This document shows, one piece after another, positions 924 through 8,148 of a DNA stretch of 11,612 nucleotides. Every line of letters begins with the position of its first letter. Within the stretch, counting starts at the first letter, position 1. The notes under the pieces are model-generated. The model searched no databases. It saw nothing but the letters and a program-made list of their open reading frames with translations, and was not told the DNA's origin. Both the position numbers and the translations under genes were made by a program. The DNA lies in the UHGV virus genome UHGV-1584301, one strand, 5' to 3'. Source of the stretch: a virus.

Positions 924-1502
924 TTAAGTATTAGTCATTGAATGTTTTATGTGCTCGAATAATGTGAGAGCATCATCAGATAATTCACGCCGAGAGATCC
1001 AGTCATGCTCATTCAATTGCCATGCAAGGCCTAAAGCTTGATTCAATCCTGGATATGCAATTGGTGAGTCATCAGAGTTACTACTTGCGGCTTCCATTTT
1101 GGCTAATGGAATTCTTAAACGATTGATCTTACGTTTATAGATCTGTATCTCATTTCGCACATGATTCAATGGAGATCCATCATTTTTTGCAAATTGATCT
1201 AATGTTCTTACTAGTTCATACATTCCTAAAACCCAGAGATAGGAAGAAGTGATATGATCACTTAAGTCGTGCATTGGGTTTTTTAGATATCCAGTCTTGA
1301 TGAGTTCAGCATCATCATTAACTAGGCGAGAATCTAGTGCACCTAGATGTTGAAGTGTTATTGTCGACCATTGATTGTGGGCCGTAATTGCATGGGAGCA
1401 GTCAACCCACCTCTTGTTTCTGTCTGCATCAAATAATCCAGCAATGTAAGCTCTAAGCCTACCATTGTGGGGCTTCTTTAATTCCTCAGACAAATTATCC
1501 AT
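924..1502 (-). CDS. Hypothetical protein of unknown function (192 aa from ATG), reverse-oriented AT-rich moron; candidate accessory, defence or conversion gene
   Basis: Reverse-strand ORF with stop at 924-926. The ATG at 1500-1502 is preceded by AGGAGA (reverse complement of 1507-1512) at a 4-nt spacing. The ORF track extends it to a GTG at 1527-1529 (201 aa), which would overlap the terminase start. Sampled 60-nt blocks give about 33-43% G+C here against about 55% in the terminase gene. No family recognised. Confidence 0.6.
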   Translation of the reverse strand: MDNLSEELKKPHNGRLRAYIAGLFDADRNKRWVDCSHAITAHNQWSTITLQHLGALDSRLVNDDAELIKTGYLKNPMHDLSDHITSSYLWVLGMYELVRTLDQFAKNDGSPLNHVRNEIQIYKRKINRLRIPLAKMEAASSNSDDSPIAYPGLNQALGLAWQLNEHDWISRRELSDDALTLFEHIKHSMTNT

Positions 1503-1522
1503 TTGATCTCCTAGGGTACTAT

Positions 1523-2050
1523 ATGGCACTCACTGACAAGCAAGAAATGTTCTGTCGCGAGTACCTCATCGATTTAAACGCCACGCAAGCGGCTATTCGG
1601 GCGGGGTACAGCGCAAAGACAGCTAACCGTACCGCATCCGAAAACATGTCAAAACCTGACATCCAATTCAGAATCGCCGAACTGAAAGCGCAACGCAATG
1701 ATCTTGTTGGTATTAATGCAGAATATGTGCTTAATCGCCTTATTGAAATCGATCAGATGGATGTGCTCGACATTCTCCTGCAAAACGGTGAGCTAAAACC
1801 CATTAAAGACTGGCCTAAGGTATGGCGCACAACGCTATCAGGAATGGATGTCGTGGAGATGGTATCTGCAGATAGCACCGCACTTCTGAAGAAAATCAAA
1901 TGGCCTGATAAGGTCAAAAATCTCGAACTTCTTGGTAAGCATGTTTCCGTTCAGGCGTTTAAAGAACAAGCTTCTCACGAGCTAACCGGCAAAGACGGCG
2001 GCGCAATCCAGATTGAAACATCACCAATGAGCACTTTATTCGGAAAATGA
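1523..2050 (+). CDS. Terminase small subunit (Terminase_2 / P27-type family)
   Basis: N-terminus MALTDKQEMFCREYLIDLNATQAAIRAGYSAKTA matches the conserved signature of this TerS family (LT-KQ--F--EYL...TQAA..AGYS). It lies immediately upstream of the large terminase with an ATGA stop/start overlap. Confidence 0.85.
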   Translation: MALTDKQEMFCREYLIDLNATQAAIRAGYSAKTANRTASENMSKPDIQFRIAELKAQRNDLVGINAEYVLNRLIEIDQMDVLDILLQNGELKPIKDWPKVWRTTLSGMDVVEMVSADSTALLKKIKWPDKVKNLELLGKHVSVQAFKEQASHELTGKDGGAIQIETSPMSTLFGK

Positions 2051-6664: not shown

Positions 6665-7918
6665 ATGGCTAACCAATTAGCAAAAGACCTTGAAATCATG
6701 TTCGAAAACTACGTTGAAGGCTTTGAGGCCGCCTGCGTAGTTTCCCGTAACGCTAAAAAATTCCGTCCCGGTGATACAGCAATGCAGCGAGCAGGTGATG
6801 TTCTGTATCGTCCGCAGCATTACCACATGAACATTGAGGAAGGCCTCGATCTCAGCAGCAAAACGCCAACAGCACTGGTTCAGCGCCTTGTTCCTTCTGT
6901 GTTCAAGGAGCCGAAAAACATTCTGTACACTCTGGATGCGCGTGAAATGCGTGACCCGGAACATAAAACTGAAGCTGGTCGAGCCGCAGGTATGCGCCTT
7001 GCTGCACAGATTGACTCTGACCTGATTTCCATGGTCACGCAGCGTGCTACTAACGTGATCACGATGGCTGACTCAACCACAGGTTCACAGGGCCGTGATT
7101 TGTGGAACTGTGCGGCAGGTATTGATGCCACCATGACGGCGATTGGTGTACCTCAGGGTATCAACCGTCGCTCTTTCTGGAACCCCTTCAACTACAAAGA
7201 CCTTGCTGGCGAGCTTGGTCACCGTGCCTATGCTCAGGGCGCAACCCTGACAGCATACGAAAAAGCGCAGATCCCTCCGGTTGCGTCCTTCGATAGCTAC
7301 AAGACCGATATTTCTGGTCGTGTTCCGAAGGGTACAGCAACTTCCATTACGCTGGCAGCAGCACCTGCGCACAAGGTTGAAGCGAAAGATGCTAACGATA
7401 TGCCAGTTGATAACCGACAGGGGACTATTACGGTATCTGCATCTGGCTTGCAGGTTGGTGATGCGTTCACCATTGCCGGTGTGAATTCCGTACACCAGAT
7501 CACCAAAGATACCACCGGGCAGCCGCAGGTATTCCGCGTTCTGGCAGTTAGCGGAACGACAGTAACTATCTCCCCGAAAATTCTGCCGCCTGACAACGCG
7601 GATGTCGCCAGCCGTCCATATGCAAACGTTGATGCTAATGCGGCAAGTAGCGCAGCAATCACCATTCTCAACAAAAATGCCGCACCGGCTAACCTGTTCT
7701 GGGCTGATGGTTCTGTTGAACTGATGTACGGCAAACTGGCGTTCCCAACTGGTCAGGGTCCACAGGTAATGACAGCAACCACCGAGCAGGGCGCTACGCT
7801 GATCATGTCTTACGCCTTCGACCACATCAAAGGCGTAACCACTGCGCGTTTCACCACTCTGTACGGTTGCTCTGTACTGGTTCCTGAATATACGGGCATC
7901 GTTATTGCCGGGCAGTAA
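6665..7918 (+). CDS. Major capsid (coat) protein, P22 gp5-like
   Basis: 417 aa. Segments AKKFRPGDTAMQRAGDVLYRP and RPYANVDANAASSAAITILNKNAAPANLFWADGSVELM parallel P22 coat segments as I remember them (AKKYTPPAASMQRS... and [33 protein letters not shown]...). GGAG RBS at about 6656-6659; followed by a strong terminator. Confidence 0.9.
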   Translation: MANQLAKDLEIMFENYVEGFEAACVVSRNAKKFRPGDTAMQRAGDVLYRPQHYHMNIEEGLDLSSKTPTALVQRLVPSVFKEPKNILYTLDAREMRDPEHKTEAGRAAGMRLAAQIDSDLISMVTQRATNVITMADSTTGSQGRDLWNCAAGIDATMTAIGVPQGINRRSFWNPFNYKDLAGELGHRAYAQGATLTAYEKAQIPPVASFDSYKTDISGRVPKGTATSITLAAAPAHKVEAKDANDMPVDNRQGTITVSASGLQVGDAFTIAGVNSVHQITKDTTGQPQVFRVLAVSGTTVTISPKILPPDNADVASRPYANVDANAASSAAITILNKNAAPANLFWADGSVELMYGKLAFPTGQGPQVMTATTEQGATLIMSYAFDHIKGVTTARFTTLYGCSVLVPEYTGIVIAGQ

Positions 7919-7924
7919 TTTTGG

Positions 7925-7948
7925 TGGGGCTTCGGCCCCATTTTTATT
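7925..7948 (+). terminator. Rho-independent terminator immediately after the coat gene
   Basis: TGGGGC (7925-7930), TTCG tetraloop, GCCCCA (7935-7940), then TTTTTATT. Begins 7 nt after the coat stop codon. Confidence 0.7.
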
Positions 7949-7959
7949 GGGAGAAGACA

Positions 7960-8148
7960 ATGGCACGAACAATGCTCTATAAGCCTGGCAACATGATCAC
8001 CTGTGGTCAGTTTGCTGTCGATTACATCATTGTTGATGACGAAGAAGTTAAATCTCACCTGAAAAAAGGTTGGGTAAAAACTCCTGAAGAAACCGCAACG
8101 AAGCAAAAAGTGGCTAAGGCGGAAGAAGATGGCGAAAACGAAGGGTGA
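7960..8148 (+). CDS. Small hypothetical protein (62 aa) between the coat and gp4-like genes
   Basis: ATG at 7960 preceded by GGGAGAAG at about 7949-7956. The ORF track's upstream extension to 7921 would run through the terminator hairpin, so I reject it. The 3' end overlaps the gp4-like start by 20 nt. Position is consistent with a small gene between coat and gp4 homologue in Sf6-like genomes (from memory). Confidence 0.5.
   Translation: MARTMLYKPGNMITCGQFAVDYIIVDDEEVKSHLKKGWVKTPEETATKQKVAKAEEDGENEG

Follow-up and report, generated by a model that had tools for sequence, protein, structure and literature searches.

The window analyzed in this study is a stretch of 11,612 nucleotides from the UHGV virus genome UHGV-1584301, which represents the late region of an Escherichia prophage of the P22-like type. 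It contains a gene on the - strand (924-1502) that encodes a protein of 192 aa and lies directly against the start of terS, the gene for the small terminase subunit. This gene is very probably the cargo of an exchangeable moron cassette (approximately positions 822-1522), placed head to head with the start codon of terS in a P22-like or lambdoid prophage, and encoding a stand-alone, soluble, mostly helical protein of 22 kDa that belongs to a large family spread by horizontal transfer as single-gene cargo. A role of the protein in defense, superinfection exclusion or abortive infection (Abi) is plausible from the context of the gene, and we tentatively favor a factor that is expressed in the lysogen and excludes or aborts superinfection as a single protein.

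A swappable slot at the terS start

The structure of the slot gives the strongest support for the moron reading and leads somewhat beyond it. By local BLAST against prophages with the same backbone and other cargo, homology on the left side was found to end at 795 (L001, SW4848) or 851 (L002, T28R), and on the right side it returns at 1513 or 1506. Enterobacter and Klebsiella prophages carry the same gene in other backbones, and homology to these runs from 822 on into terS. From these breakpoints the mobile unit is therefore approximately 822-1522. In addition to the coding region, it comprises a cassette-specific leader of 20 nt on the - strand (1503-1522), whose right edge falls exactly at the TerS ATG, and a 3' untranslated region on the same strand (822-923) with a terminator-like hairpin (849-837). 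This untranslated region moves with the gene into other phage backbones and shows about 74-77% identity to the Enterobacter and Klebsiella loci.

Prophages with this type of terS were found in 203 of 5,426 genomes, and the contents of the slot were sampled from such prophages. Four other cargo types were observed on the - strand, namely a 174-aa protein (phrog_5483), a 182-aa protein (phrog_30882), a pair consisting of a YodC-family protein and a DUF6953 protein, and a 90-aa protein. The slot of one locus (L080) holds no annotated gene, and another (L081) is filled only with + strand genes. All five - strand cargo sets, including the 192-aa gene, have their start 19-27 nt away from the TerS ATG and a leader of their own (loci including L001, L002 and L077-L081), and the five types diverge at the first base past the CAT complement of that ATG. 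No similarity to the 192-aa protein was found at the BLASTP level for the two larger alternative cargo proteins. By these comparisons the locus is a slot with fixed walls, formed by the terS 5' end on one side and by a backbone hairpin and orf68 on the other, and with exchangeable content. A first-pass annotation, made from the letters of the window and its open reading frames (ORFs), had proposed that the gene is a moron gained by horizontal transfer, in a slot flanked by the lysis region and TerS, and had suggested a survey of related prophages for differing cargo. The survey returned at least five unrelated - strand sets and an unannotated slot, and together with the cassette breakpoints, the low GC content and the signs of purifying selection described below it bears this proposal out.

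Two side observations concern the slot and its vicinity in other prophages. The 182-aa protein also occurs in the laboratory strain E. coli B REL606, where an uncharacterized - strand gene of this size occupies the slot of a defective prophage (L078 1933-2481, ECB_RS03905, WP_000762846.1); WP_001067622.1 is another occupant of the slot. At positions beside the cassette, sister prophages carry an AcrIF11-like ADP-ribosyltransferase and an Acb2/Tad1-like protein (L007 8928-9413; L010 7114-7407), which would make the lysis-terS interval a place where counter-defense genes gather besides other cargo.

The right wall of the slot is terS (1523-2050, + strand; Terminase_2, Pfam PF03592, E = 3.5e-39), the first morphogenesis gene. 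Its 5' end (1523-1649, + strand) is the upstream region common to every cargo type, and these first 127 nt show 95-96% identity among E. coli, Enterobacter and Klebsiella, compared with 80-87% for the cargo. The shared divergence point and the conserved terS start point to a recombination anchor or a hidden control region, or to the two combined. Further along, terS was observed to be a mosaic with a breakpoint at about 1965. The first 440 nt or so are common to prophages with a completely different large terminase subunit (TerL), portal and head module, of the Phage_portal_3/Mu_F type (L002, L003, L087-L094), and the last third of the gene follows the type of TerL, which would fit a contact between the C-terminal part and TerL. 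In Klebsiella (L008/L010, about 7727-7980), the cassette is carried with a 5' fragment of terS. Codon 66 of this fragment is followed by a stop, which makes it a pseudogene; its first 127 nt still show 95% identity to E. coli. The prophage has its real terminase 4 kb away.

On the left side, orf68 (506-712, + strand; phrog_5901) is a backbone ORF of 68 aa that the E. coli backbone keeps under any cargo. A role as cargo-specific partner was rejected for orf68, given its constant association with the backbone and the lack of any relationship to the ORF of 72 aa that flanks the Enterobacter cassette. Between orf68 and the cassette lies the backbone hairpin (765-790, strand-neutral), an AU-rich stem of 9 bp with an A run on one side and a T run on the other, which may act as a weak bidirectional terminator. 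A scan of Rfam gave nothing above threshold; a weak match to the Phe leader at 706-791 on the + strand (score of 26 bits, gathering threshold 55, E = 0.12) is only the hairpin and T run after orf68, with the look of a + strand terminator or attenuator that the antiterminated late transcript must pass.

The cargo gene itself begins with an ATG at 1502 and ends with the stop codon at 924-926. In the ORF list it appears as 924-1529, which gives 201 aa from a GTG or 192 aa from the ATG at 1502. Because all close homologues begin with MDNL at this ATG, the coding sequence is 924-1502 and not 924-1529; the first-pass annotation had thus identified a real - strand ORF and the correct 192-aa product but had set the boundary of the gene too far upstream. 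The ribosome-binding site AGGAGA that it had noted is present (complement of 1507-1512), 4 nt before the ATG. Its description of the gene as wedged against the terminase start also holds, since the cargo start and the TerS ATG (1523) lie head to head only 20 nt apart. All other - strand ORFs of at least 100 aa sit inside + strand structural genes, and the cargo gene is therefore the only free-standing - strand gene, as had been claimed. Likewise, its GC content of 38.7% (31.6% at third codon positions) is indeed lower than that of the TerL, portal, scaffold, coat and gp10 genes (50-52%) and of the whole window (49.1%).

The + strand of the window carries, in this order, a KilA-N fragment, the 68-aa ORF, TerS (Terminase_2), TerL, portal, scaffold, coat and tail-accessory genes, with a PBSX-type TerL showing 95-98% identity to Sf6, HK620 and CUS-3-type phages. 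A further ORF of 75 aa (phrog_1175; 7921-8148, + strand) separates the coat gene from the following head-completion gene, whose start it overlaps.

The 192-aa protein and its family

The cargo protein has a maximal Kyte-Doolittle score of 0.67 (19 residues), which indicates the absence of a transmembrane segment, and an isoelectric point (pI) of 6.35. The AlphaFold2 model, computed with the family alignment as input, is confident (predicted local distance difference test score 89.5, predicted template-modeling score 0.84) and consists of an N-terminal helical pair, a four-helix core, a small three-strand sheet and a C-terminal helix. The N-terminal helical pair is specific to the enterobacterial clade. 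Apart from the small sheet, the model agrees with the initial description of a mostly alpha-helical product with no obvious membrane segment.

A first homologue search returned 95 matches, down to E = 4e-12, none of them with a Pfam domain or an informative name. A profile search against 1.84 billion cluster representatives extended the family to 898 clusters (50% identity) at E <= 1e-3 in bacteria and archaea, ranging over Proteobacteria, Cyanobacteria, Verrucomicrobia, Nitrospirota, the Candidate Phyla Radiation (CPR) and archaea. The best 150 of the 898 clusters have lengths of 108-278 aa (165-200 aa for most), with the match in one uninterrupted stretch. The sole domain fusion found in the family is a metagenomic protein of 278 aa (P0207) with a C-terminal PilZ domain, which binds cyclic di-GMP (c-di-GMP); this match (E = 9.4e-6) is above the Pfam cut-off.

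Conservation was observed at two levels. Compared with the Enterobacter and Klebsiella prophage copies, the ratio of nonsynonymous to synonymous substitutions (dN/dS) is 0.13-0.23 at a synonymous divergence (dS) of about 0.5. Among distant members, an alignment of 48 sequences contains six invariant columns (W32, D57, W90, E96, R99 and W161) and sixteen near-invariant ones, including R28, S87, Y95, R130, P132, K135, P151 and R171. The first-pass annotation had named absence or disruption of the ORF in all close relatives as the sign of a spurious ORF; Enterobacter and Klebsiella prophages were found to keep it, with these low ratios and within a family of this size, and to judge from the substitution pattern the cargo gene is a real gene under purifying selection. 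Along the sequence, the conserved polar residues are spread over several elements, with R28 on core helix 1, D57 on helix 2, E96 and R99 on helix 3, R130 and K135 in the loop after helix 4 and R171 at the start of the last helix. This spread is the pattern expected of one pocket at the end of the bundle, which may bind a phosphate-bearing ligand. The most conserved motif, R-L-R-I-P-L-A-K-x-E ... D-S-P-I-A-Y-P, falls in the least confident stretch of the model.

The identical protein occurs in 442 sample blocks of the assembly collection and was not found in any of the 5,426 complete E. coli genomes from RefSeq. No isolated phage genome with the gene was found by tblastn in 50,697 phage records including P22, where only two Acinetobacter records matched. 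These two (CAKLQH020000001.1 and CAKLQF020000001.1, 'Acinetobacter phage MD-2021a', 328-378 kb) are mislabelled bacterial chromosome contigs, in which lptB, kdsC, kdsD, cysS and a tRNA-Gly gene adjoin a prophage.

The first-pass annotation could place the product in no family it knew, and it had proposed profile and Foldseek searches. Consistent with its statement, Pfam, PHROGs, NCBIfam and PADLOC gave no match to the 192-aa protein (in PADLOC-DB v2.0.0, 0 families at E <= 1), and Pfam gave none to 40 family members. The proposed searches revealed no homology to a housekeeping or known structural phage protein, and Foldseek found no significant structural neighbor in the PDB or BFVD. No mention of the family was found in the literature and supplements searched by accession numbers and sequence motifs.

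Three candidate identities were considered and dismissed. A match to Rap1a had only E = 0.13. The sole match of the profile against the PDB, 59 residues aligned to the plant protein 5c05 (E = 0.0086) through an RDR...YFWxLG-like helix, pointed to the class I terpene synthase fold. Class I terpene synthases carry Asp-rich DDxxD and NSE/DTE metal-binding motifs in an alpha-domain of about 300 aa. This identity was ruled out since the cargo protein has no DDxxD motif and is half the size of that domain; Foldseek matches to UbiA and GGPPS have E > 7. The hallmark of HEPN proteins is a conserved Rx4-6H motif where the last core helix begins. At this position the cargo protein has R171-R-E-L-S-D176, no conserved histidine is present in the alignments of 40 and 48 sequences, and neither a specific similarity to the HEPN fold nor a HEPN profile match was found.

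Genomic context and possible function

The neighborhoods of the family were annotated in 53 loci from GTDB species representatives, which contain 99 immediate neighbors. Neither an all-against-all clustering of the ORFs in the 53 loci nor a Pfam and PADLOC census of the immediate neighbors revealed a conserved partner gene, and ten large upstream neighbors that were annotated are all different. As no neighbor is conserved, the protein therefore appears to act alone. The family member is richer in A+T than the DNA around it in 37 of 47 loci (median difference of -6.3 points, up to -24).

Where the context is readable, a family member usually occupies a cargo position in a mobile element. Lambdoid prophages of E. 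coli, Enterobacter and Klebsiella carry the gene amid several lysis, Q and head modules. Acinetobacter prophages (L068-L070) have it between the integrase and the lysis and tail genes, adjoining Rosmer RmrT/RmrA; the Rosmer-like pair, an RmrT match (E = 1.3e-9) and a helix-turn-helix (HTH)-M78 peptidase, is located directly downstream (L068 7953-9827). Two filamentous (inovirus) prophages were found, one in Vibrio where the family member follows zot and a secretin gene and precedes an ADP-ribosyltransferase, and one in Chitinolyticbacter where it directly follows zot. Other contexts are a Serratia island with HicAB and a P4-type primase, a Zymomonas plasmid with RelE/ParE beside the family member, a ParAB-bearing, plasmid-like contig of Photobacterium with GmrSD and HEPN genes about 4.4-6 kb away, and a methanogen in which an Avs2-like STAND NTPase adjoins it. 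CapP is also among the 99 immediate neighbors, and a GajB match was rejected as the housekeeping UvrD. Further copies are AT-rich islets of one gene inserted into chromosomes, amid housekeeping genes. A prophage island of Aeromonas hydrophila (L066/L067 1264-9972, lambdoid early region) contains a family member with genes for a catalase, an ankyrin-repeat protein, a Cu-superoxide dismutase, HNH and a KAP NTPase, and with TIR only in L067; oxidative-stress and defense-like genes occur here together as cargo. The profile of the family is that of a horizontally mobile accessory gene, which is compatible with defense and no proof of it.

In the superinfection-exclusion or Abi reading that we tentatively favor, a weak, non-consensus start within the conserved terS 5' end would drive leftward transcription of the gene, opposite to the late operon. 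The protein would thereby be present in the lysogen, where it alone would block or abort infection by competing phages. Residues from each helix (the invariant D57, E96 and R99, with R28, R130, K135 and R171 nearly so) would form a conserved polar site, which may bind a phosphate-bearing ligand such as nucleic acid or a nucleotide, or a phage protein. The layout of the locus is such that the Q-dependent late transcript must cross the cargo gene antisense en route to terS. Upon prophage induction, this Q-driven transcription over the whole gene may silence the cargo and so spare the prophage's own growth.

Several observations weigh against this reading, the first of which concern expression. 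A standard scan found no sigma-70-like promoter on the - strand in 1503-2100, and a relaxed scan gave nothing conserved among seven loci. The cassette begins at the TerS ATG, and any promoter must therefore lie inside the terS coding sequence, common to all cargo; a perfect TTGACA is present there at 1652-1647, without a usable -10 element. The independent promoter that had been assumed for the gene was thus not confirmed. Both candidate terminators are weak. The hairpin at 765-790, which had been taken as the terminator of the moron, does exist, but it is weak (z = -1.25 for a 71-nt segment), was not called by the terminator scan and belongs to the backbone and not to the cassette, because prophages with other cargo (L001, L002) retain it; it reads better as a + strand terminator. 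The terminator scan called the - strand site at 849-837 inside the cassette, and its U-tract is not conserved in other hosts. Other points concern the protein and its relatives. The protein has no match in the family databases, and the single site formed by its conserved residues is assumed from their positions along the sequence. Many distant homologues lie amid housekeeping genes (uvrD, ffh, cytochrome b, mfd) with no defense or mobile-element marker nearby, and the defense neighbors (Rosmer; TIR/KAP NTPase; Avs2-like STAND) are single loci and not a statistical enrichment. Finally, the slot region in other phages also houses the anti-defense-like genes of the AcrIF11-like and Acb2/Tad1-like types.

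A bolder version of the exclusion reading was also considered and is rather unlikely. Here the protein would found a new phylum-spanning family of single-protein effectors against phages or mobile elements, and the locus would be a plug-in slot with a control region hidden in the terS 5' end and an antisense mechanism that turns the cargo off when the prophage itself enters lytic growth.

Among the rival explanations, a moron that modulates its host or lifestyle in the manner of P22 Pid, by altering host physiology or element maintenance (metabolism, stress or the carrier state), survives best, though we consider it unlikely. Like the cargo gene, pid lies on the opposite strand of the lysis-terS interval, and its product targets the host dgo operon (PMC8835761). 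The many distant homologues that are lone insertions amid housekeeping genes would suit such a role, and the single PilZ fusion points to signaling. The distribution of the family from Proteobacteria to CPR and archaea makes a host-specific regulator target unlikely, however, and Pid is an unrelated ORFan, with no match to any P22-like phage in the tblastn search.

A counter-defense (anti-immune) protein, which would neutralize a host defense, is decidedly unlikely. The genes found at neighboring positions in sister prophages agree with it, as do the small size, solubility and lack of partner of the protein, and its rarity in phages, with no isolated phage genome and two mislabelled records, is typical of accessory arms-race genes. 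However, a gene oriented against the late operon and outside the early operons would not be made when an infecting phage needs the protein, and the family is common in chromosomes, plasmids and archaeal and CPR genomes away from phages. The near-neutral pI also argues against a DNA mimic.

Very unlikely is a weapon or addiction gene acting between mobile elements, either by interfering with the packaging of satellites or rival phages or as a partner-less, toxin-like stabilizer. The gene always abuts the terS start in enterobacteria and is carried with the terS 5' fragment in Klebsiella, but this contact reflects the slot and not the protein, because four other unrelated cargo types use the same junction. 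Toxin-antitoxin modules (HicAB; RelE/ParE) are found nearby in some loci, whereas the distant homologues have no terminase nearby and no conserved antitoxin-like partner. The last alternative, a spurious or decaying ORF without function, would accord with the lack of annotation anywhere and of a promoter, but it has a negligible probability and is effectively refuted by the conservation at both levels, together with the confident model and the occurrence of the identical protein in hundreds of sample blocks.

If the protein is indeed a defense or exclusion factor, it would add a compact, partner-less system of about 190 aa, with about 900 clusters in bacteria and archaea, that current annotation and defense-finding resources miss entirely. 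The slot is useful whatever the protein does. It provides a place to mine accessory functions, with at least five unrelated - strand sets, one of them in E. coli B REL606, and it allows testing whether antisense late transcription gives generic self-immunity for prophage cargo.

Comparison with known systems

The cargo gene belongs to a known kind of moron, namely those on the opposite strand of the late region in P22-like or lambdoid prophages, and the protein family that it encodes is undescribed and without detectable relatives. The pid gene of P22 and BTP1 is likewise a single small late-region gene between the lysis cassette and terS, directed against the late promoter and followed by a downstream hairpin, and the P22 map shows it on the opposite strand in this interval. 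Its expression takes place in lysogens or carrier cells (PMC8835761, PMC7067206), and in BTP1 lysogens it ranks with the prophage genes of highest expression (PMC7067206). In P22 it has an eroded -10 element (AATCCT), a 174-nt 5' leader and a dependence on the downstream hairpin (PMC8835761). The lack of a consensus promoter does not exclude expression of the 192-aa gene, because pid is highly expressed in spite of its eroded -10. The two genes differ in several respects. They have no sequence relationship, and Pid is an ORFan of P22-like phages whereas the 192-aa family spans about 900 clusters across phyla. In addition, pid is located about 450 bp (orf80, orf59c) upstream of terS whereas the 192-aa gene abuts the terS ATG, and the promoter of pid has been mapped whereas none was found for the 192-aa gene.

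TaiEcA (tail assembly inhibition) of HK106/phi80-type lambdoid phages is comparable by gene layout. The taiEcA gene is a divergent defense gene inside a Q-controlled late operon, an arrangement described as a 'non-contiguous operon', and late transcription runs antisense to it (PMC11364771). The two loci differ in that the cognate counter-defense gene atiEcA adjoins tai, whereas the neighbor orf68 goes with the backbone under any cargo. The taiEcA layout hints at a simple silencing of cargo during the prophage's own lytic growth. HepS of Gifsy-1, a prophage Abi protein, is a solo HEPN protein without a partner (PMC13043305).

Finally, the cassette resembles the lambda-type morons in the sense of Juhala and Hendrix, such as bor and lom, in being an extra gene between conserved neighbors, with deviant composition and with presence or absence among close relatives. 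It differs from them in its fixed junction at the terS ATG, which is reused by at least five unrelated cargo sets and which marks the locus as a plug-in slot and not the site of a one-off insertion.

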